Source: Candidatus Levybacteria bacterium RIFCSPHIGHO2_02_FULL_40_18 (GTDB taxonomy: Bacteria > Patescibacteriota > Microgenomatia > Levybacterales > GWA1-39-11). Taken from it: 64,000 bases of DNA. The stretch is from assembly GCA_001782235.1 (NCBI GenBank), contig MFOC01000004.1, positions 115,328-179,327 on the forward strand, read 5' to 3'. How positions within the stretch are numbered: position 1 is the stretch's first letter; each line of letters begins with the position of its first letter. Positions 4,441 to 62,654 of the stretch are shown here, in pieces. The notes beneath the pieces were generated by a model. It saw nothing but the letters and a program-made list of their open reading frames with translations. It was not told the origin of the DNA and made no database searches. The position numbers and the translations under genes were made by a program.

Positions 4441-5826
4441 ATGAAGCTTTATAATACGCTGTCGCGTTCGATAGAAGAATTTGAACCGCTGGATCCGCCC
4501 AATGTTGGGCTGTATGCTTGTGGACCAACGGTTTATGATTACACGCATATTGGGCATCTTCGAAAATATATAAATGATGATCTTCTTGTTCGAACACTTG
4601 CCGCAAACCGATATAAAGTTCGTCATGTGATGAATATAACCGATGTCGGGCATTTAACTTCAGATGCGGACGCAGGGGAAGATAAACTTGAGAAGGGTGC
4701 CGCAAAGCTTGGCAAAAGCGTTCTTGAAGTTGCAAAGTATTTTGAAGACGATTTTTGGAAGTCGTTAGCACTTGTAAATGTTGAGAAACCAGATGTTACA
4801 GCCCGCGCAACAGAACATATTGATGATCAGATCGCATTAATCGAAACGCTTATCGATAAAGGCTATACCTACAAAACTCGCCAGGCAATATATTTCGACA
4901 TTTCAAAATTTCCAAATTACACCAAACTTTCACGACAGAAACTTTCGGAGAAAATGGCAGGGGCAAGGGGAGATGTGGTTGTTGACGCAAGAAAGCGCAA
5001 TCCGGCTGACTTTGCTCTGTGGTTTTTTACGGTCGACCGATTCGCTAATCACACATTGCGATGGAAATCTCCATTTGGTGAGGGGTTTCCCGGTTGGCAT
5101 ATTGAGTGTTCCGCTATGTCAATGAAATATCTAGGTTTAAGTTTTGACATTCATACAGGAGGCACTGATCATATCCCGGTCCATCATACTAATGAAATTG
5201 CCCAGAGTGAGGCGGCAACAGGCGCGCCCTTTGTAAAATATTGGGTTCATCACGCATTCCTAACTGTCGAGGATGAGAAAATGGCAAAATCAAAAGGCAA
5301 TTTTTATCGAATAAGCGAGTTAGTTGAAAAAGGCTATAATCCACTTGCTTTCCGATATCTTACTTTTCAGACCCATTATCGATCTGAGATGAATTTTACT
5401 TTCGAATCGCTCGCGGGTGCAAAACTTGCCTTAAATAGGCTATACGAAAGGGCCTCTTACTTTAAAGAAGTTCATAAACACGCCGATATCGAATTTGAAA
5501 GAGACTTCCTTGATTCTTTGTCGCAAGATCTAAACACACCGCGCGCGCTTTCAATCATGTGGGGTATGTTAGGATCAAATCTTTCGGATTCGGTAAAGGC
5601 CTCGACCCTTTATAAAATGGATGAAGTTTTAGGTTTGAAGATAAAAGAGAATGCTGTCTTACTACATGATATTCCCGAGTCGGTTATGAAATTAGTTCAT
5701 GATCGAGAGGAGCTTCGCAAACAAAAGCAATTCACAAGAGCAGATCATCTAAGAAGCAAACTTGAAAAAATGGGCTACATTTTGGATGATGAAAAGGATC
5801 GAACAAGAGTCCTTCGCAAGATATAG
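4441..5826 (+). CDS. cysS: cysteine--tRNA ligase
   Basis: Class I motifs: [15 protein letters not shown] (HIGH) and KMAKSKGN (KMSKS). Typical CysRS N-terminus MKLYNTLSR. Confidence 0.9.
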
Positions 5827-5884: not shown

Positions 5885-5985
5885 GTAATAGAAATTGGTA
5901 ATTGGAAACAATACTATTCCATTTTCCATTCTCTATTTTCCATTACCATTTTCTATTTTCTAACAACCATTGTCTATTAGTTAAT
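5885..5985. repeat. dispersed intergenic repeat, family D (aaattggtaat / ccattttccattctctattttccattacc / aacaaccatt)
   Basis: A highly similar copy in inverted orientation at 10241-10310. Confidence 0.5.
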
Positions 5986-5993
5986 ATTGTTTA

Positions 5994-6053
5994 GAATTTA
6001 GATATTAGATATTAGATATTAGATATTAGATATTAGATATTAGATATTAGAAT
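5994..6053. repeat. tandem 7-bp microsatellite (GATATTA)n, about 8 copies
   Basis: gatattagatattagatattag... read directly. Intergenic, between cysS and a minus-strand gene. Confidence 0.85.
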
Positions 6054-6863
6054 TTACCTGGTGGATGTGTTTGTTGGCGTAGGCGTTCCAGATTCCTCAA
6101 CGGGTGCGTACTTCAAAAGAACTTCCGATATTGGTAAATTTGCAAAATGAATTATCCGAGAAGCGTTAACAGTTTCTTTGCTATTCAAATCGGGGAACCC
6201 AATAACAATAACTCTTTGCCCCACTAAAACCTTTGAAAATCCTGACTTTGTTAAAGTTTTATCATCCCATACATTTGTTTTTGTGGAACTCTCAATGTCA
6301 ATATTATTAGTTTTACCGCCTGAGTCAATGACCGTCAAAGTAAATTCGCGGGAATTCTTCCCTGTTACAACGCCTTCAATATTGATTGGAACATTCTCAG
6401 AAACATTTATAAATCGTGCCAAAAGTCTTTTGGTATCCTTGTTATATAGGCCGATAGCCGAAATTCTATCTCCCTCTTTAATGTCTGAAATCCCAAAAGA
6501 GCTTTTGCTTGAAACAAATTTTGTTAACTCATCAATATCTATTGATCTTTGATCCTCTTTATGATCCTCAATGACTATTTGGGAATTTGATATTCTTTTA
6601 ACAACGCCTAATATTCCTCTTTTATCAACAAGCTTTAATTCCGCAACTTTTGACGCCACAAGATCTTTTATCTTTTCAATGGTGTCTTGTTCCTTTTCTT
6701 CAGCAGTAATCTGCGGAGTAGGGGATGGCGCCGCCCCGGAGGGGCTCTGCCCCGGAGTGGGGGTCGGAGTTTTTGTCTGAGCCGCAATAGGGCGGGACAT
6801 AATAGTTACAATTGTTATAAAAATTATAACCATTGTAATAGAACTATTTAAAGCATTTTTCAT
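6054..6863 (-). CDS. hypothetical secreted/membrane-anchored protein with Pro/Thr-rich linker
   Basis: N-terminal hydrophobic segment, then TPTPTPGQSPSGAAPSPTPQ linker. C-terminus GTPTPTNTSTR. No recognisable catalytic motif. Confidence 0.45.
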   Translation of the reverse strand: MKNALNSSITMVIIFITIVTIMSRPIAAQTKTPTPTPGQSPSGAAPSPTPQITAEEKEQDTIEKIKDLVASKVAELKLVDKRGILGVVKRISNSQIVIEDHKEDQRSIDIDELTKFVSSKSSFGISDIKEGDRISAIGLYNKDTKRLLARFINVSENVPINIEGVVTGKNSREFTLTVIDSGGKTNNIDIESSTKTNVWDDKTLTKSGFSKVLVGQRVIVIGFPDLNSKETVNASRIIHFANLPISEVLLKYAPVEESGTPTPTNTSTR

Positions 6864-7934: not shown

Positions 7935-8017
7935 TACATAGATAATAGTGACTAGATACTAGCTACTAGGGATTTGTTCTATCTATTATCTAATATCTAT
8001 TATCTAACATCTAAAAT

Positions 8018-9586: not shown

Positions 9587-10150
9587 TCAGACTAAATTGG
9601 CAAGGGCGAGTTCAACCTTTTGCGTAAGATTCTCGACTGTTCCGTCATTTTCGATAACTACGTCTGAGAGTTCAAGACAGGCCTGGATCTGTTGTTTGTG
9701 CGAGCCTGTTTGGGCAAATTCGCGATCATCAAGCTCTTTAAATTGCTCAAAATTTTGGATTTCATCCGTATATATTCCGCGCGCGCGAAACATATCATAC
9801 CTTTTTCTCTGATTGGCAACCACGCCAATAATCTTTGCACCAAATTTTTGTCTGAAATAATTGATTTCTGCCGGGTTTCGTATAGCATCGATTACAATGA
9901 TATCAGGATTGTCCCGCTCTATAATCTCTGCGGTTCGGACAGCTAGGATATCAGTTCCAAGAGTATTTCTGAGATCATTTGAAACCAAATTACAATTAGC
10001 TCGGTTTACGTCTAGTCCGCGCGATTTAACCTCTTCCTTAAGAACATCTGAGGTAGAGTAGGCAGAATATCCTTTTTTCTTCAGGAATTCGATAACGGTT
10101 CCTTTTCCGGACGCAATGGGGCCCACAAGCCCAATAACAATTCTTGGCAT
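9587..10150 (-). CDS. P-loop nucleoside/nucleotide kinase-like protein (AAA_18 / dNMP-kinase / dephospho-CoA-kinase-like), copy 1
   Basis: Walker A GLVGPIASGKGTV. IVIDAIRNPAEI and QACLELSDVVIEND are shared with the paralog at 10313-10876. 187 aa. Confidence 0.6.
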   Translation of the reverse strand: MPRIVIGLVGPIASGKGTVIEFLKKKGYSAYSTSDVLKEEVKSRGLDVNRANCNLVSNDLRNTLGTDILAVRTAEIIERDNPDIIVIDAIRNPAEINYFRQKFGAKIIGVVANQRKRYDMFRARGIYTDEIQNFEQFKELDDREFAQTGSHKQQIQACLELSDVVIENDGTVENLTQKVELALANLV

Positions 10151-47248: not shown

Positions 47249-47770
47249 ATGAAAAAAGAATCCAGAAAGGGGTTTACCCAGCACCATTTTCGCAATTTGA
47301 TAGAATACTGTAAAAATGGTGCTGGGTTTACTCTCGTTGAGCTTTTGGTTGTTATCGTAATTATCTCGGTTCTTGCTGGCCTATTAGTGTCGAATTTTAT
47401 AGGAGTACGCCTGCGTGGCCGCGACGCTCAGAGGAAAAGTGATCTTGCTCAGATACAATCGGCTCTTGAACTCTACCGCGCTGACAACGGCTACTATCCG
47501 GCAACGCTCTACTCAACCGCGTGTCCCACTTCAGGATCATTCTCATATAATTCGATCGTATATATGCGAAAAATTCCGTGTGACCCCCTTCAAAAAACAA
47601 ATTATACATATACGGCCGCTCCGGCTGGTTGTTCGACTGATTGTACAACCTATAGAATCTACGCTTGCCTTGAAAACACCAACGATTCTAACAAAGACGC
47701 CAATGACGGACAGGCAGGGGATCTTTGCACAAGTGCAGGAGTCGTATCCTACACGGTAATAAACCCCTGA
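47249..47770 (+). CDS. type IV pilin-like protein with an extended leader created by an in-frame palindromic insert
   Basis: MKKESRKGFT[QHHFRNLIEYCKNGAGFT]LVELLVVIVIIS. The GFT prepilin site is duplicated around the insert. Confidence 0.7.
   Translation: MKKESRKGFTQHHFRNLIEYCKNGAGFTLVELLVVIVIISVLAGLLVSNFIGVRLRGRDAQRKSDLAQIQSALELYRADNGYYPATLYSTACPTSGSFSYNSIVYMRKIPCDPLQKTNYTYTAAPAGCSTDCTTYRIYACLENTNDSNKDANDGQAGDLCTSAGVVSYTVINP
47272..47331 (+). repeat. in-frame palindromic insertion element (long form), CCAGCACCATTTT...AAAATGGTGCTGG, flanked by GTTTAC direct repeats
   Basis: 13-bp perfect inverted arms with a 22-nt loop. 54 nt including one GTTTAC copy, so frame is preserved. The same element sits in the neighbouring pilin gene. 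Confidence 0.65.
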
Positions 47771-47806: not shown

Positions 47807-48355
47807 CGGTCAAGAACAGGATTTACCCAGCACCATTTTCGCAATTTGATAGAATACTGTAAAAATGGTGCTGGGTTTACTCTCGTTGAGCTTTTGGTTG
47901 TTTTTTCTCTGATGTCAATCGTCTCAGGTCTTGGATTTGCCTCTTTTATGTCATACTCGAGAAGACAAGTAATTGTCCAGGCGGCTTCAAATTTTAAACA
48001 GACAATAGATCTTGCACGTTTTAATGCTCTCTCGCAGGTTAAGCCTGAAACATGTAGTTCAGGCGACGAGCTTTCAAATTTTAAGGTAAATATTTGCCTT
48101 AATGCAATTTGTCTAAACTCAGGCGTAGATTATGAAATGAATGTTACGTGCGCAGGGCTTGAGCAAGTATATGTTAAAAAAACATTGCCTCAAGGTGTTA
48201 CCTTCTCAAACGTTCCCGGGAACCCGGCGTGCGCAACTTTAACGTTTAATGCCCTTACAGGCGTTGCTCAAGGATTACCCTGTGAGATCTATATTAACGG
48301 ATATGGAAATCAAGTGATATTTTCAGTTGATAGCAATGGTCATGTATCATATTAA
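47774..48355 (+). CDS. type IV pilin-like protein with the same in-frame palindromic insert in its leader
   Basis: MSNVKCQMSNVRSRTGFT[QHHFRNLIEYCKNGAGFT]LVELLVVFSLMS. About 80 nt is identical to 47270-47350. Confidence 0.65.
   Translation: MSNVKCQMSNVRSRTGFTQHHFRNLIEYCKNGAGFTLVELLVVFSLMSIVSGLGFASFMSYSRRQVIVQAASNFKQTIDLARFNALSQVKPETCSSGDELSNFKVNICLNAICLNSGVDYEMNVTCAGLEQVYVKKTLPQGVTFSNVPGNPACATLTFNALTGVAQGLPCEIYINGYGNQVIFSVDSNGHVSY
47821..47880 (+). repeat. in-frame palindromic insertion element (long form), second copy, flanked by ATTTAC / GTTTAC
   Basis: Identical to the copy at 47272-47331 except for the left flank. Confidence 0.65.
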
Positions 48356-55157: not shown

Positions 55158-57233
55158 TTAGTCTTTGGAGATCTTAGGGAGACTTATTTCTTCGACTTTT
55201 TGTTTGAGGGTTGGGTATTTGGAGAGTTTGTCAAACAATTGTTCGGCCGAGGTTCGAGCTCGTTCGATTGTGGAAAGGTCGGACAAAGATGCGATTTTAA
55301 GATCCGGAATTCCGTGCTGGGCAGTGCCAAACATGTCACCCGGGCCGCGAAGTTTCAAATCAATTTCTGCAAGCTCAGGGCCATTATCAATAGTTTGCAA
55401 ATATGAAAGTCGCTTGCGAGTTTTATCGCTTGTCGCATCGGTAAACCCAGCACCATGATGGTGCTGGGTAAACAGAAAACAATACGACTCCTTCTCTCCC
55501 CTTCCTACTCTACCTCTCAATTGATGAAGCTGTGCAAGGCCGAATCTTTCTGCTGCCTCAACTATCATAATATCTGCAGTCGGAATGTCGATTCCAACCT
55601 CAATCACAGGAGTTGCAACCAAGATATTAATCGAACCATCCCTGAATTTTTTGATGACCGAACTTTTTTCGGCCGATTTTAATTTTCCGTGAAGAAGTCC
55701 AAGTCTAAAATTTGGGAAGACTTCTTTTTTCAAACGTTCAAATTCTTCTTTTGCAGCTTTTACCGTGGTTAAAGTTTCCGACGGTTCAATAAATGGACAT
55801 ACAATAAATACTTGGCTTTTTTCTTTTCTAATTTTGTCAGAAATCCACCCATAACCCTTTTCTCTTTTTTCTTCAGGGACCACCCATGTTTTAATCTTTT
55901 GTCGTCCTTTTGGCATTTCGTCCAAAACCGATAAGGAAAGATCCGAATAAATTGTTAAAAAGATTGTTCGAGGAATTGGCGTTGCGGTCATCGACAATAG
56001 ATGTGGGTTAGTTCCCTTTTCGCGCAAGATAGCTCGCTGCTCCACTCCGAATCTCTGTTGTTCGTCAATTACTACCAGTCCCAGATTGTCGAATTTTGCT
56101 CGATTATGAATTAGAGCATGAGTGCCAATTGCTATATCGAAGTTTGGCTGTTGGCTTTTGGCTTTTGGCTTTTGGCTTGAAGTGAAAAGATCCACCTTAA
56201 CTCCAAAAGGTTCGAGAATACTTTGAATAGTATCGAAGTGCTGGTTGGCAAGGATTTCTGTCGGCGCCATAAACGCAGTTTGATAGCCGTTTAAAAAAGC
56301 AACATATGCCGCAATTGCCGCAACCACAGTTTTCCCCGATCCAACGTCTCCCTCAAGAAGTCTGTTCATGGGAATACTTTTCGAAAGATCCTCGAAAATT
56401 TCGTTTGCTGCTCTTTTTTGTGAGGATGTTAATTCGAATGGAAGGCTCTTAATGAGTTCTGCAACTTTTGCGCCGTGCTTTTCAATTTCAAAAGGAATTG
56501 CCTTTCCTCTTTTCTCCCACTCTTTTTTTCTGATAAGCGCTGCCGTGTGTTTTATCAACAATTCATCAAATGAAAGCCTGGCTCTTGCATATTCCGCTTC
56601 TTCAAAGGTCTTTGGGAAGTGGATGGTTCGAATAGCGGTTGGGAGATCTATTAAATTATTTTCTGACCGAATGTTTTCTGGGAGATATTCGGATATGCGG
56701 ATATTTTCAAGCAAACTTTTAATTCGGTTCCTGATCCATTTTGAGAAAAGCCCGCGGGTTTCAGAATAAACCGGAACAAGACCGGTTGTATGAATTGCCT
56801 CCGCATCTTTATTCGAAAGAACTTCGTAAGAGCGAACACTTAATGTTTTTTTACTGCCGAATTTCTCTACCCTTCCTGCAAAAGAGACAAATTCACCTTT
56901 TCGAATATTCGATAAAATGAATTTTTGATTAAAAAAGATCGCATCTATTTTCCCGGTGTCATCTTGGACAGTGATTTTTTGAATTGTAAGGGCTCGCCCT
57001 GAGGAGCGAAGTGACGAATGGGTAAAAATATTTGTGGCTGAAACAACCTTGCCTTGAACGGTCACCTGCTCCCCGAATTGAAGGATTCCAATTTTCGAGA
57101 CATGATAATTCTCATAGCGAAAAGGAATATAGAGCAAAAAATCCTCAACCGTCTCTAGGCCGACTTTTAATAATACCGCCCTCTTCATTCTGAAAGTCGG
57201 CCCAAGTAAAGCAAGCGGAGTCTTCAAATCCAT
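55158..57233 (-). CDS. recG: ATP-dependent DNA helicase RecG (carries an in-frame palindromic insert and a 7-mer coding tandem)
   Basis: Wedge domain, Walker A GDVGSGKTVVA, DEQQRFGV motif II. Unusual segments LFTQHHHGAGFTD and SQKPKAKSQQPN. Confidence 0.85.
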   Translation of the reverse strand: MDLKTPLALLGPTFRMKRAVLLKVGLETVEDFLLYIPFRYENYHVSKIGILQFGEQVTVQGKVVSATNIFTHSSLRSSGRALTIQKITVQDDTGKIDAIFFNQKFILSNIRKGEFVSFAGRVEKFGSKKTLSVRSYEVLSNKDAEAIHTTGLVPVYSETRGLFSKWIRNRIKSLLENIRISEYLPENIRSENNLIDLPTAIRTIHFPKTFEEAEYARARLSFDELLIKHTAALIRKKEWEKRGKAIPFEIEKHGAKVAELIKSLPFELTSSQKRAANEIFEDLSKSIPMNRLLEGDVGSGKTVVAAIAAYVAFLNGYQTAFMAPTEILANQHFDTIQSILEPFGVKVDLFTSSQKPKAKSQQPNFDIAIGTHALIHNRAKFDNLGLVVIDEQQRFGVEQRAILREKGTNPHLLSMTATPIPRTIFLTIYSDLSLSVLDEMPKGRQKIKTWVVPEEKREKGYGWISDKIRKEKSQVFIVCPFIEPSETLTTVKAAKEEFERLKKEVFPNFRLGLLHGKLKSAEKSSVIKKFRDGSINILVATPVIEVGIDIPTADIMIVEAAERFGLAQLHQLRGRVGRGEKESYCFLFTQHHHGAGFTDATSDKTRKRLSYLQTIDNGPELAEIDLKLRGPGDMFGTAQHGIPDLKIASLSDLSTIERARTSAEQLFDKLSKYPTLKQKVEEISLPKISKD
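55441..55473 (-). repeat. in-frame palindromic insertion element (short form) in recG: CCAGCACCAT g ATGGTGCTGG flanked by GTAAAC (GTTTAC on the coding strand)
   Basis: 10-bp perfect arms. 27 nt including one flank, adding QHHHGAGFT to RecG. Same arms and same flanking hexamer as the pilin copies. Confidence 0.65.
56149..56176. repeat. tandem 7-bp repeat (TGGCTTT)x4 inside the recG coding sequence
   Basis: ttggcttttggcttttggcttttggctt read directly. It encodes a Lys/Ala/Gln/Pro low-complexity stretch. Confidence 0.6.
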
Positions 57234-58677: not shown

Positions 58678-61032
58678 ATGCAGTATTATAGTTCGGGTCC
58701 GCGTTCAAGAAGATTAAGGTTTCAAAGATCCTCCCTTAGACTCCTCATTTTAAGTCGCCTCACAAGGTATATTTTCTTGGGGCTGATTGGAGGAATTGTT
58801 TTGTTTTTTCTCTACTTTTTGTGGGCTTCGCGAGATCTCCCCACTCCGGGAAAACTTGCCGGCAGCGATATAAAAGATTCGACCAAAATCCTTGATAGAA
58901 ACGGCGTTGTGCTCTACTCCATATTCAAGGACTATAATCGTCTATATGTTCCACTAAAAGACGTTCCCACAGATTTGAAAGAAGCGACAATTTCAATTGA
59001 GGATAAGGATTTCTATACAAATAAAGGGTTTTCTGTGACTGGATTAATTAGAGGCTTATTGATAGACCCTATTTTAAAAAGTCGAGTTTCAGGTGGTTCA
59101 ACCATTACCCAGCAGTTGGTCAAAAATGTGCTTTTGACGCCGGAGAGAAGTATCGCAAGAAAAATGAAAGAGCTGATATTGGCGATTCAAGTAGATCAAA
59201 GGTTCTCAAAAGACGAGATTCTTGAGATGTACCTGAATAATGTTGCCTACGGAGGAACAGCAGTTGGTGTTGAGGCTGCAGCCAATCTCTACTTTGGCAA
59301 ACACGCAAAAGAACTTAATCTTGCGCAGTCTGCATTCTTGGCAGGCCTTCCGCAGGCGCCCTCAATCTATTCGCCATTTGTGGGGAAGGATAAGGCATAT
59401 ATTGCGCGAACAAAGGATGTCTTGCGAAGAATGAGAGAGGACGGGAAGATCACCCGAAAAGAGGAACAAGGAGCTTTCAAAGAAGTCGAGAGCTTTACAT
59501 TCACCCAAAAACAGGGGAATCTTAAGGCGCCTCACTTTGTGCAGTATATTCGCGAACAATTGGTGAAATTGTACGGTGAAGCGGTTGTTGAAAACGGAAA
59601 CCTAACGGTTGTTACAACACTTGACTATGAGATCCAAAAAAACGCAGAAGATATAGTATTTGAGGAAATTGAAAAAATTGAAAAATATGACGTTGGGAAT
59701 GGTGCGGCTATTGTGATGGATCCTAAAGCAGGCAGCATTTTGGCTATGGTCGGAAGCCGCGATTATTTTGACACAGAGCATGAAGGGAATTTCAATGCTG
59801 CAATAGCTCACCGGCAACCCGGATCGGCATTAAAGCCAATCATGTACGCAACGGCCTTTGAAAAAGGATACACACCGGCAACTCTACTCATGGATCTAAA
59901 AACCGAATTTCCGACCAACGTCCCTGGGCAAAAAGACTATATTCCCGTTAATTACGACGGGAAATACCGCGGCCCAATGCAGGTAAGATTTGCTCTGGGA
60001 AACTCCGAAAATGTACCTGCGGTCAAAATGCTTGCTCGTGTAGGTATAAAGCCTGTCATGCAAAAGGCATATGATATGGGTATTGAAAACTGGAAGCCGA
60101 CACAGGAAAATCTTAATAATGTTGGGTTGTCTTTGGTTCTTGGCGGTCGCGAGATAACGCTTGTTGAAATGGCGACTGCTTACTCTACCTTTGCCAACAA
60201 GGGGGTAAAAAAAGAAGCTTTTTCAATTGACGAGGTAAAGGATAGAAAAGGAAAAACAATTTACAAGCACAAAGATCAAAAAGGCGTAAAAGTTCTATCG
60301 GAAGAAGTTGCATTTTTAATTTCCCATATTCTTTTGGACAATAATGCCCGATCTGAGGTTTTTGGGACGAACTCGTTACTAAATATTGCCGGCCGAACAG
60401 TTTCCGTAAAAACCGGAACTACAGATTCAAAGCGAGACAACTGGGCTGTCGGATATACACCATCTTTTGTTGTTGCTTCTTGGGTTGGTAACAATGACAA
60501 TACTCCCATGCATCCAACAATTGCTTCGGGCGTAACAGGTGCAACACCAATTTGGAGAAGGATTACGCAATTTGTTTTGAAGGGGAAACCTGATGAAAGA
60601 TTCGGCGAACCGCAAAGTGTTGTCGCCATGCAAATCGATGCTTTTTCAGGAGGACTGCCGCGGGATGGTCAACCAACAAGGAGCGAATATTTCCTAAAAG
60701 GGACTGAACCTACAACAAATGCCGTTATTTATAAAAAAGTTAAATTGTCAAAACATCAAGGCGGAAAACTTGCGAATGAAGAGGAGATAAAGCGTGGAGA
60801 CTATGATGTAAAAGAATATATTGTTTTTGAAGAGCAGGATCCGGTTTCACGAGATGGGCGCAATCGCTGGCAGGACGCAATAAATAATTGGATTAACGAA
60901 GCCCACCCTGGAGACGATCTCTACCGCCCTCCAACAGAAGTCTCGGATCACAAATACGAACCTGAAGAAACACCAACGCCAACAATTTCGATTACACCAA
61001 CTTCGTCTTTAACCCCAACCACGGTCCCATAA
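58678..61032 (+). CDS. class A penicillin-binding protein (transglycosylase + transpeptidase), PBP1A-like
   Basis: GT51 motifs EDKDFYTNKG and GGSTITQQLVKN. Transpeptidase SALKP (SxxK) and KTGTT. Confidence 0.85.
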   Translation: MQYYSSGPRSRRLRFQRSSLRLLILSRLTRYIFLGLIGGIVLFFLYFLWASRDLPTPGKLAGSDIKDSTKILDRNGVVLYSIFKDYNRLYVPLKDVPTDLKEATISIEDKDFYTNKGFSVTGLIRGLLIDPILKSRVSGGSTITQQLVKNVLLTPERSIARKMKELILAIQVDQRFSKDEILEMYLNNVAYGGTAVGVEAAANLYFGKHAKELNLAQSAFLAGLPQAPSIYSPFVGKDKAYIARTKDVLRRMREDGKITRKEEQGAFKEVESFTFTQKQGNLKAPHFVQYIREQLVKLYGEAVVENGNLTVVTTLDYEIQKNAEDIVFEEIEKIEKYDVGNGAAIVMDPKAGSILAMVGSRDYFDTEHEGNFNAAIAHRQPGSALKPIMYATAFEKGYTPATLLMDLKTEFPTNVPGQKDYIPVNYDGKYRGPMQVRFALGNSENVPAVKMLARVGIKPVMQKAYDMGIENWKPTQENLNNVGLSLVLGGREITLVEMATAYSTFANKGVKKEAFSIDEVKDRKGKTIYKHKDQKGVKVLSEEVAFLISHILLDNNARSEVFGTNSLLNIAGRTVSVKTGTTDSKRDNWAVGYTPSFVVASWVGNNDNTPMHPTIASGVTGATPIWRRITQFVLKGKPDERFGEPQSVVAMQIDAFSGGLPRDGQPTRSEYFLKGTEPTTNAVIYKKVKLSKHQGGKLANEEEIKRGDYDVKEYIVFEEQDPVSRDGRNRWQDAINNWINEAHPGDDLYRPPTEVSDHKYEPEETPTPTISITPTSSLTPTTVP

Positions 61033-61056
61033 TAGGTTATCTTAGAACATCTTCTA

Positions 61057-61830
61057 AAACACCTTCGGGGTGTCTCTCGATGGCACCTGACGTTTTATTT
61101 AAACCCAACCACTTTCATAGTCTAATAGGAGATGTTTTATTTGGTCAATTTTTTTTGCGTAATCAATATGATCTAGAACAAACTGTTTATAGCTATTTTT
61201 TGTTTCGAATTGATCAAGGATGACTTCCTTTTGACAAACCTCGTTATTAATAGAATTAATATATTCTGGATAGGACGACCATCTATATGTTTCCAAGTTT
61301 TTTGTTACAAAACCGATTAACGGATTTAAATGAATGTAACGTCCAAGATGAAGAAGTTGTTCGTTTGATTCGACATGAACTGCTTTAAAATCTCCCTGGA
61401 GAATTGGTCCTACTCTATTATTTTTGATATTAAAGTATTTAGTATAGCTATTGCTTATTTTACTGATGAATTCCGAGATTCCCCCATCCGTTACTTGTTT
61501 TAATAGGAAATGGAAATGATTTGGCATAAAACAGTAAGAAATAATATCGACAATTTTTTTAGATGAATCTAATTCATAAGTTTCTGATGTAAACTTTGAG
61601 AATCGTGGTTTTTGATCATCAATTTGATAATAAAGGACGCATTTAAGAAATCTATTATAATCATAGAAATTATTAAAAATTCTCATCTTTGCGACACCGC
61701 GGTTGAATATGTGGTAGTATTCTCCGGTTGCAAGTGGTACTTTTCTTGAGGCCATATTCTAAATAAAGCAAATAATACGCCGGGTGTCAACGGTAAACAC
61801 CTTCGGGGTGTCTTACGATTGCACCCGCAG
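61057..61830 (-). mobile_element. IS200/IS605-like unit: Y1 HUH transposase gene flanked by about 35-bp direct repeats, each with an ACACC-TTCGG-GGTGT hairpin
   Basis: Left copy 61057-61092 (aaacaccttcggggtgtctctcgatggcacctgacg). Right copy 61794-61830 (taaacaccttcggggtgtcttacgattgcacccgcag). About 775 bp in total. Confidence 0.5.
61099..61755 (-). CDS. Y1 HUH-family transposase (IS200/IS605 TnpA / REP-associated tyrosine transposase-like)
   Basis: YHIFNRG N-terminal motif, HUH motif MPNHFHFLL, C-terminal Tyr region RYIHLNP. 218 aa. Confidence 0.65.
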   Translation of the reverse strand: MASRKVPLATGEYYHIFNRGVAKMRIFNNFYDYNRFLKCVLYYQIDDQKPRFSKFTSETYELDSSKKIVDIISYCFMPNHFHFLLKQVTDGGISEFISKISNSYTKYFNIKNNRVGPILQGDFKAVHVESNEQLLHLGRYIHLNPLIGFVTKNLETYRWSSYPEYINSINNEVCQKEVILDQFETKNSYKQFVLDHIDYAKKIDQIKHLLLDYESGWV

Positions 61831-61874
61831 ATTTTGGATAGAGTTTATATGTTGAGTTTGCTGTAGAATTTAGG

Positions 61875-62654
61875 TCACAAGAATTTTTGAATAAATTCGA
61901 TTGTTGCACTGTCTGCTAATTCGGCGTCTTCTTTTCTATTGTGGAGGCCGTGTTCCGCCCCTTTGATAATCACAAGCGAACCATTTTTAACGAGCTTTGA
62001 ATACTTGACGGAATCTTCATAAGGGACGAAAGTATCCTTGTCTCCATGAATGAAAAGTATCGGTATTTCGACTTTCAAAAGTTCTTGCCACGGCGTAAGG
62101 GATTGTATTTTATGCATTAAATTCCTGCCTGCCTTAAACTTTCTCCGTCCAATTTCGGAAAAACCATATTTTTCGGCTCTGTCAAAAGCGAGTTTTCCCC
62201 AGTTTTCTTTTCCCCAAGGAGTCGTTACGTTTATGTGTGAGTCATAATCAATCAAAGAATTCCATAAAATGAGCGCTTTTACAACATCCTTGTGCTTTGG
62301 AATAAAAAATGAAGCTGCACCACCAGCAAAACTTGCCGCGATTAAACCGAATTTGCTAAATGCTTTCGATTCCAGATATTTTACCGCAAATTCGATATCC
62401 TCAGTCTCACCTTTTATCGTTATGTCGACAGAATTCCCTTCGCTTTCTCCGTGCCCACGAAAATCAAATCGAAAAACTGCAAATCCCGCACTTGCTAGCT
62501 TTCTAGCTAATCCTGTAAATATTCCACCTTCATCTTTGTCGACAGTTATTCCGTGGCATAAGATTATGCATTTATTTGTTTTTATGCTTGGATAAGTAAA
62601 GACCCCACAGAGTTTTAGACCATCCGTAGAATCAAAATAAACTTTCTCTTCCAT
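61875..62654 (-). CDS. alpha/beta-fold hydrolase
   Basis: HGITVDKDEGG and FRGHGESEG oxyanion/lid-region motifs, nucleophile-elbow-like AASFAGGAA, C-terminal GAEHGL. Confidence 0.6.
   Translation of the reverse strand: MEEKVYFDSTDGLKLCGVFTYPSIKTNKCIILCHGITVDKDEGGIFTGLARKLASAGFAVFRFDFRGHGESEGNSVDITIKGETEDIEFAVKYLESKAFSKFGLIAASFAGGAASFFIPKHKDVVKALILWNSLIDYDSHINVTTPWGKENWGKLAFDRAEKYGFSEIGRRKFKAGRNLMHKIQSLTPWQELLKVEIPILFIHGDKDTFVPYEDSVKYSKLVKNGSLVIIKGAEHGLHNRKEDAELADSATIEFIQKFL

Follow-up and report, generated by a model that had tools for sequence, protein, structure and literature searches.

What kind of element is formed by a single open reading frame (ORF) for a transposase-like protein that sits between two hairpin-bearing repeats in the genome of Candidatus Levybacteria bacterium RIFCSPHIGHO2_02_FULL_40_18? 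The locus lies towards the end of a 64,000-nucleotide stretch of contig MFOC01000004.1 (the whole stretch is hereafter called the window), and the initial annotation had read it as a single-ORF IS200 with left-end (LE) and right-end (RE) structures. Our analysis indicates that the locus is probably REPtron-like, with a domesticated, single-copy and vertically inherited Y1/HUH endonuclease of the TnpAREP/RAYT class (REP, repetitive extragenic palindrome; RAYT, REP-associated tyrosine transposase) residing between copies of its own cognate palindrome. The locus consists of the following features.

61099..61755, minus strand: Y1/HUH endonuclease gene encoding 218 aa, ATG start, from the ORF call and a Pfam Y1_Tnp match
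61781..61827, minus strand: upstream (5') unit, unit U, a double-armed imperfect palindrome of ca. 47 nt with an inner perfect hairpin at 61797-61811
61059..61091, minus strand: downstream (3') unit, unit D, left arm and inner hairpin only, hairpin at 61059-61073

The 218-aa protein belongs to the Y1/HUH enzymes within the IS200-related superfamily, and its gene is the single ORF within the intergenic interval 61033-61874. The landmarks behind the initial transposase call are all present, namely YHIFNRG, the HUH motif in PNHFHFLL (H80-F81-H82) and the catalytic Tyr140 in RYIHLNP, and are followed by a WSSY tail motif and a helical C-terminal tail of ca. 75 aa. The call was confirmed by the Pfam profile search it had proposed, which matched PF01797 (Y1_Tnp) above the gathering score (28.5 bits vs a cut-off of 23, E 1.8e-6, residues 65-142), and by the invariance of the HUH histidines and the tyrosine in relatives. 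In an alignment of 25 homologues with 60-86% identity, H80, H82, Y140, N144, P145, S160 and S161 are invariant, and besides HUH and Tyr a further 49 positions do not change down to 60% identity. The motif set of these clade proteins is NHFH, [L/F]QG, YIHLNP and WSSY. No DnaA_C or helix-turn-helix (HTH) domain was detected in the C-terminal tail by profile search. An AlphaFold model of the protein (pLDDT 77, pTM 0.78) returned as its top Foldseek match in the PDB entry 4ER8, the Escherichia coli REP-associated tyrosine transposase bound to a REP hairpin (E 6.2e-6, probability 1.0), whereas the IS608, ISDra2 and IS200 transposases scored at E values of ca. 1e-2 and above. The fold comparison was necessary because a sequence-profile search of the PDB missed 4ER8 and gave only weak ISDra2 matches (E 0.14).

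The repeats on both sides of the gene, initially described as direct copies of ca. 35 bp, were found to extend over 40 nt (61057-61096 vs 61795-61834, 83% identity). Each copy carries the perfect 5-bp ACACC/GGTGT stem already noted, closing a 5-nt loop (61059-61073 and 61797-61811). The repeats are thus real on both sides, but the extent given for the upstream one was too short, as this copy belongs to the longer imperfect palindrome of unit U. A 17-mer common to both repeats, ACACCTTCGGGGTGTCT, has exactly two sites in the 64 kb even with three mismatches allowed, compared with 0.07 matches expected, and two matches were reached in 1 of 100 shuffles. On the gene-sense strand unit U reads GGTGCAATCGTAAG-ACACC-CCGAA-GGTGT-TTACCGTTGACACC, while unit D, which begins 11 nt past the Y1 stop codon, reads CAGGTGCCATCGAGAG-ACACC-CCGAA-GGTGT. 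Folded as single-stranded DNA, unit U reaches -13.8 kcal/mol (z = -3.3; 0 of 200 shuffles equally stable). An nhmmer profile of the cognate unit, built from 20 related units, recovered unit U at E 1.5e-15 and unit D at E 1.5e-11 and no other site in the window. Both units have counterparts around the Y1 genes of five relatives, here designated by locus handles (L106, L110, L083, L084 and L003): unit U upstream, and the left arm and hairpin of unit D downstream.

The association of gene and palindrome holds across the clade. For 69 homologous Patescibacteria Y1 genes, the 200 nt upstream were aligned with the 200 nt downstream in direct and inverted orientation, and 329 other genes of the same loci served as controls. 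Flank-repeat scores of at least 15 were obtained for 71% of the Y1 genes and for 3% of the controls, with median scores of 19 and 9, respectively (Mann-Whitney p = 1e-22). This is in good agreement with the tie between flanking hairpin repeats and transposase gene that had been proposed from the window alone. Perfect stems of at least 5 bp occur in 86% of the shared flank repeats (median 7 bp) vs 11% of random segments of the same length, and stems of at least 7 bp in 51% vs 0.3%. Stem sequences are wholly different from lineage to lineage and still palindromic (ACACC/GGTGT, TTCCAC/GTGGAA, AGGGGTT/AACCCCT and CTAGGACCGCCCTGTC, among others). Because the palindromes differ between lineages yet continue to flank the gene, gene and hairpin co-vary. 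Both direct and inverted flank repeats are found across the clade, direct ones being predominant among closer relatives. Further, contig JBAZXP010000001.1 carries two divergent Y1 paralogues ca. 19 kb apart (L024 and L031, 46% and 43% identical to the window protein), each with its own palindrome; paralogues each with their own repeat have been reported for REPtrons.

A third, in-frame copy of the flanking palindrome lies inside the Y1 gene in 8 of the 43 relatives with flanking palindromes (L026, L041, L048, L059, L066, L071, L073 and L078). It occupies nucleotides ca. 153-201 of the coding sequence (CDS), corresponding to one fixed surface loop before HUH (window residues ca. 50-65). The Y1 gene of the window itself has no intact internal copy. 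A half-site in it (TTTACA[T/C]C[A/C]GAAAC, encoding F-T-S/P-E-T) is not claimed as a relic of such a copy, being too short and confounded by protein conservation.

Units also occur away from the gene. A full solo unit of the same organism is located between genes 7.5 kb past the window end (L001:2497-2547). Scanning metagenome contigs with ATCGWRAGACACCCCGARGGTGT yielded 24 loci, of which ca. 12 represent distinct sites with no Y1 gene nearby, and 12 of the 15 solo sites that were checked are intergenic. One 80-kb contig combines a Y1 gene (87%) with five units. The search for additional copies that the initial annotation had recommended was therefore productive as far as solo repeats are concerned, but it returned no second copy or paralogue of the Y1 gene in the window. 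Two solo units were counted in ca. 130 kb of gene-anchored sequence (the window, L001 beyond the window, L083, L084, L003 and L106), from which we extrapolate ca. one solo unit per 70 kb, or some tens of units per ca. 1-Mb genome. Solo units take the form either of the full double-armed palindrome or of the left arm and hairpin followed by AAWCGG. Related feet adjoin the stem on both arms (CG-N-AAG and, on the opposite strand, CGRYAA), and double-armed units of this kind resemble the 'double foot' REPs of another TnpAREP subclass.

In a related organism one unit of this family is found in frame within the leucyl-tRNA synthetase gene leuS (L090:1716-1757; also L096, L098 and L107), where it encodes ...FAGVIERHPEGVINVDEGVNG... 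in a variable loop. This represents a REP-like insertion within the coding region of a housekeeping gene. A 97%-identical leuS homologue has the same in-frame unit, and the 10-aa length difference between the two lies elsewhere. The window contains no counterpart of this leuS gene.

Partial tandem duplications of one hairpin arm and its flank were seen beside several units (L084:10669-10720 and 9900-9960; L110:3208-3260; L108:4357-4400; L093/L103). Examples are GGTGTAAACGGAA-GGTGTAAACGG and a doubled CCGATTACACCCCG, and the strain pair L105 and L108 differs by one such duplication. Such duplications may have been left by cleavage and rejoining or by slippage at the hairpin.

Could the repeats instead be ordinary promoter and terminator hairpins that resemble each other by chance and are not acted on by the Y1 protein? 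Putative transcription signals can indeed be recognized in both units.

61762..61790, minus strand: inferred Y1 promoter, with -35 TTGACA at 61785-61790 in the right arm of unit U and -10 TTTATT at 61762-61767
61068..61098, plus strand: alternative hairpin GGGTGTC...GGCACCT on the opposite strand, 7 pairs and a T-run, built from unit D, terminator-like consensus match

The promoter-like layout comprises a 17-nt spacer ending in TG-n (61768-61770) and an ATG (61753-61755) only 6 nt past the -10 element, with no Shine-Dalgarno sequence. Five lineages with 62-100% protein identity share the arrangement TTGACA-17-(TGn)TTTA[TGC]T-N6-ATG. A simple consensus promoter scan did not call TTGACA-17-TTTATT, its -10 rule requiring an A at position 2, so that the promoter assignment derives solely from comparative conservation. 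The layout suggests a leaderless Y1 mRNA that would be driven from inside unit U. On the other side of the gene, the predicted terminator-like hairpin at 61068..61098 is positioned for the convergent gene of the class A penicillin-binding protein PBP1A, while on the Y1 strand unit D presents the ACACC hairpin followed by TTTT. Judged from these sequences, the units seem to have been co-opted as gene punctuation, supplying a -35 element upstream and terminator-like hairpins for both convergent genes.

The conserved promoter elements ahead of the ATG, the terminator-like hairpins called in the units and the placement of solo units between genes are what speaks for transcription signals as the whole explanation. 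Similarity to terminators alone is nevertheless insufficient, because both-side similarity is seen in 71% of the Y1 genes vs 3% of other genes, because the palindrome varies along with the Y1 lineage while still flanking the gene on either side, and because in-frame copies exist inside the CDS of 8 of 43 relatives, unlike a terminator, and inside leuS of a relative. We thus regard chance similarity of regulatory hairpins as quite improbable. Promoter and terminator roles are compatible with an enzyme that acts on the units and are not a replacement for it.

We then considered where the gene is found. In the assembly collection, 52 blocks list a protein identical to that of the window, and the 24 contigs that were read resolve to two near-identical places, both at the same site. 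The protein has 3765 homologues, mostly with one contig each and, where named, 'transposase' of Levybacteria or Curtissbacteria. A genome scan gave at least 580 loci, mostly in metagenome-assembled genomes (MAGs) of Patescibacteria, many of them inside long contigs (up to 1.1 Mb); one locus belongs to a complete genome. In the window the Y1 gene is bordered by two genes.

58678-61032, plus strand: gene for the class A penicillin-binding protein (PBP1A), stop codon at 61030-61032
61875-62654, minus strand: alpha/beta-hydrolase gene, with pheT beyond it

Five lineages (the window, L106, L110, L084 and L003) have the gene at the same site, with PBP1A-tyrS-recG on one side and pheT on the other. 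Taking the window proteins as reference (100% for Y1, PBP1A, RecG and TyrS), identities in the other four are as follows.

L106: Y1 87%, PBP1A 77%, RecG 66%, TyrS 55%
L110: Y1 84%, PBP1A 89%, RecG and TyrS not in the locus
L084: Y1 67%, PBP1A 55%, RecG 53%, TyrS 44%
L003: Y1 62%, PBP1A 65%, RecG 52%, TyrS 47%

With neighbouring proteins only 44-89% identical, the Y1 gene shows roughly the same degree of conservation as its housekeeping neighbours and has remained at this site through deep divergence. The same site and comparable identity in five lineages mark it as a long-term resident with housekeeping-like behaviour.

These data bear directly on the possibility of an autonomous minimal IS200-type insertion sequence (IS), in which the two hairpins would serve as LE and RE of the same strand, with excision of the element as a single-stranded circle and reinsertion in the manner of IS200 and IS608. 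In addition to the Y1_Tnp domain and the direct hairpin-bearing repeats at both ends, two relatives are in line with this proposal. In L083 (82% Y1 identity) the block lies between unrelated genes near rpsB-tsf, and its homology with the window is confined to 61055-61824, that is, to unit, gene and unit. In L111 (70% Y1 identity) the block is at yet another site, beside a D-Ala-D-Ala carboxypeptidase gene. Variable gene content beside the upstream unit among relatives would fit as well. Since the homology of L083 stops exactly at the units, the hairpins delimit a module, and the unit-gene-unit block was likely relocated occasionally, or rearrangements break at the units. An empty-site comparison gave no result, as the L083 flanks have no counterpart in the window.

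Most other observations are difficult to reconcile with an autonomous IS. The gene is single-copy and occupies the same site in five deeply diverged lineages, its conservation equals that of housekeeping neighbours, and assemblies run continuously through the locus on contigs of up to >1 Mb. The protein has Y---NP rather than Y---Q, measures 218 aa with a C-terminal tail rather than ca. 150 aa, and is structurally closer to RAYT 4ER8 than to IS608 or ISDra2. Solo units are single hairpins and not LE+RE miniatures. According to the published classification, IS200-type proteins (subclass 1.1) are defined by Y---Q and a core-only protein of ca. 150 aa (PMC6006769 Table 1). The locus is not a member of the IS200 group, as it shows neither this motif nor this length nor, in the 64-kb window and the 24 contigs read, several near-identical copies at varied sites. 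It shares with the IS200/IS605 TnpA systems (IS200, IS608, ISDra2) the HUH and Tyr core, the same-orientation subterminal hairpins on both sides and the module boundary at the hairpins, but differs by its Y---NP motif, its 218 aa, its one copy at a fixed site (as seen in the 64-kb window and the 24 contigs), the absence of tnpB and the weaker match of the window protein (Foldseek ca. 1e-2, hidden Markov model (HMM) E 0.14). Overall, an autonomous IS200-type element appears unlikely. Of the initial proposal, the superfamily, the flanking hairpins and the module boundary were retained, whereas the IS200 identity gave way to the single copy, the site fixed in five lineages, Y---NP, 4ER8 as best structural match and the solo units. 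A static, syntenic site had been named at the outset as an argument against mobility; the site is static in five lineages, while the blocks of L083 and L111 are found elsewhere.

The stretch between pheT and the upstream unit has a different gene content in every syntenic relative and forms a small variable spot abutting the unit. It holds the alpha/beta hydrolase gene (61875-62654) in the window, a 246-aa ORF on the opposite strand in L106, a 168-aa hypothetical protein gene in L084, genes for an acetyltransferase and a peptidase S51 and a 211-aa ORF in L110, and a gap of ca. 700 nt in L003. In L003 both units (L003:4880-5000 and 5650-5700) have an altered outermost stem pair; the upstream copy (GCACC...GGTGA) is affected in its left arm and the downstream copy (ACACC...GGTGC) in its right arm. 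These altered arms would pair perfectly with each other, as expected if the block had entered the loop of a pre-existing GCACC/GGTGC hairpin; this is a single case and could be chance.

A decaying remnant, consisting of an inactive former transposase gene with fossil ends, would account for the few units nearby and for the lack of recent movement seen in this strain. The intact ORF, the invariance of HUH, Tyr and 49 further positions among 25 homologues as distant as 60% identity, the 3765 homologues, the conserved promoter and a protein identity as high as that of PBP1A, RecG and TyrS make this very hard to believe.

The REPtron-like interpretation rests on detailed similarity to known TnpAREP/RAYT systems with their REPs (E. 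coli YafM, 4ER8; groups 2 and 3 of Bertels, equivalent to subclasses 2.2 and 2.5 of Quentin). Common to both are a single-copy Y1/HUH gene that behaves like a housekeeping gene and has its own palindrome on either side, a repeat that is also dispersed in intergenic DNA, covariation of gene and repeat between lineages, 4ER8 as top structural match and the Y---NP motif. Single-copy and vertically inherited behaviour matching that of this gene is known from domesticated RAYTs (PMC5581495, PMC8266576). Comparing motifs by eye with the published table, we would place the protein in class 2 with a subclass 2.1-like signature. Subclass 2.1 is characterized by NH[YF]H, FQ, Y[IV]HLNP, an SS tail and low copy number (Quentin et al. 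2018, PMC6006769 Table 1) and corresponds to RAYT Group 1 (Bertels et al. 2017, PMC5581495), to which the TIRYTs (Di Nocera et al. 2013) also belong. The window protein agrees with it in motif signature, a length of little over 200 aa and low copy number. Group 1 flanking 16-mers are moderately repeated, with ca. 12 per replicon (Bertels, PMC5581495), in line with the low unit density extrapolated here. The TIRYTs differ by their long terminal inverted repeats with GGGGWSAS. This subclass assignment is one of motifs and not of the authors' HMMs, and the tail of the window protein is devoid of a detectable DnaA_C or HTH domain.

Several findings weigh against a REPtron-like locus, or at least against a typical one. 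The NCBIfam equivalog NF047646 (REP_Tyr_transpos) scored 41.3 bits, under its cut-off of 80. Neither the N-terminal Thr nor the NP[LV][RK]xG motif behind the Tyr, both specific to RAYTs (Nunvar 2010, PMC2817692), is matched, since the first strand reads YHIFNRG without Thr and the Tyr is followed by NPLIGF. The canonical GT[AG]G head is absent as well, the sense-strand foot being CG[T/A/G][A/G]AG in which T is not conserved. The locus is thus not a canonical GTAG-REP RAYT. Unit density is low, with 3 units in ca. 72 kb compared with hundreds per genome for classic REPs, and no further units beyond U and D were found in the window by the 17-mer with up to 3 mismatches, by the hairpin pattern or by the nhmmer profile. 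Units U and D align as direct repeats in the window, as do the flanking copies in several relatives, whereas RAYTs as first defined have inverted ones (PMC2817692). What is always kept on each side across relatives is the hairpin and the gene-proximal arm, which in our own interpretation of the sequences would amount to an inverted arrangement of related feet. REP-like structures are described as lacking next to subclass 2.1 genes (PMC6006769), while short hairpin palindromes flank most of this clade (71% of 69), so either the subclass 2.1 assignment is wrong or this clade differs from the published description. Some IS-like mobility is indicated by L083 and L111, and the activity of the enzyme on its units is a predicted one. 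Further differences from the known REPtrons are the longer protein with its C-terminal tail, a host that is a Candidate Phyla Radiation (CPR) bacterium with a ca. 1-Mb genome and not a proteobacterium, and a gene that evolves no faster than its neighbours, compared with the rapid evolution reported in PMC2817692.

For E. coli TnpAREP, cleavage and rejoining of single-stranded REPs have been shown to depend on hairpin and foot (PMC8266576). By analogy with this enzyme and IS608 TnpA, we infer that the 218-aa protein may bind, cleave and mobilise its units. It would bind the folded hairpin on single-stranded DNA and read the conserved bases at the hairpin foot, which are CG-N-A-A/G-G on the sense strand; the opposite strand has the related CGRYAA. 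Cleavage and rejoining would take place near the foot through Tyr140 and an HUH-bound metal. As a result, units would be copied or maintained and slowly spread, and the whole unit-gene-unit block would rarely be moved.

A more specific and rather tentative proposal is that the Patescibacteria-wide, subclass 2.1-like clade represents a distinct REPtron variant. Its marks would be short, lineage-specific hairpins without a GTAG head at both gene ends, usually in the same orientation, apparently its own promoter and terminator, and in about one lineage in five a third, in-frame copy. In-gene REPs have been reported only for tnpAREP of subclass 2.4, where they lie between HUH and Tyr (PMC6006769). 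The 8 of 43 relatives resemble these in carrying the flanking palindrome in frame within the CDS, in a surface loop; they differ in that the copy is N-terminal to HUH (ca. 50-65) and the protein belongs to another subclass, and the window gene is without an intact copy. If the proposal is true, these features hint that the enzyme may target its own gene, for autoregulation or self-excision, and that the unit-gene-unit block may be relocated like a cassette from one hairpin site to another.

Work on REP-type repeats and their dedicated Y1 enzymes has been confined almost entirely to Proteobacteria and Cyanobacteria. A full-text literature search found no paper describing REP/RAYT systems in CPR/Patescibacteria; one preprint merely notes a K07491 annotation in a DPANN archaeon. 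The arrangement of a REP with a dedicated enzyme is a known one, here in a bacterial group for which no describing paper was found. As seen from this locus and the ca. 70 relatives analysed, streamlined genomes of ca. 1 Mb retain a strongly constrained Y1 enzyme and a hairpin that co-evolves with it, and for this reason a host-beneficial role rather than parasitism can be argued. The clade offers compact material for the characterization of substrate choice by class 2 Y1 enzymes, with short perfect hairpins, a clear foot and many natural covariants. With regard to annotation, such 'transposase' calls in CPR MAGs should not be counted as active insertion sequences.

The initial annotation had also suggested the enzyme as a candidate mobiliser of other palindromes in the window. 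This was not upheld for the ACCCAGCACCAT family, which is unrelated in sequence and hence no evidence that the element is active; ACCCAGCACCAT/ATGGTGCTGGGT palindromes were rejected as substrates because of their unrelated sequence and because they do not adjoin the gene. A palindrome family unrelated to the Y1 units, GGTTTACCCAGCACCAT ... ATGGTGCTGGGTTTAC, with six exact 12-mer matches vs 0.11 expected, is located at 47270-47330, 47820-47880 and 55438-55476. At the first two places, starts of pilin-like genes (ATG GTG CTG GGT TTT ACT CTC GTT GAG = MVLGFTLVE) pair with an upstream complement over a 28-nt loop, while the third is a near-perfect 19-bp palindrome inside recG whose strand encodes ...HHHGAGFT.... 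Finally, a tandem 7-mer array (ATATTAG/TAGATAT) unrelated to the Y1 locus occupies positions 5974-6073, with similar degenerate stretches near 7935, 31753 and 33364.

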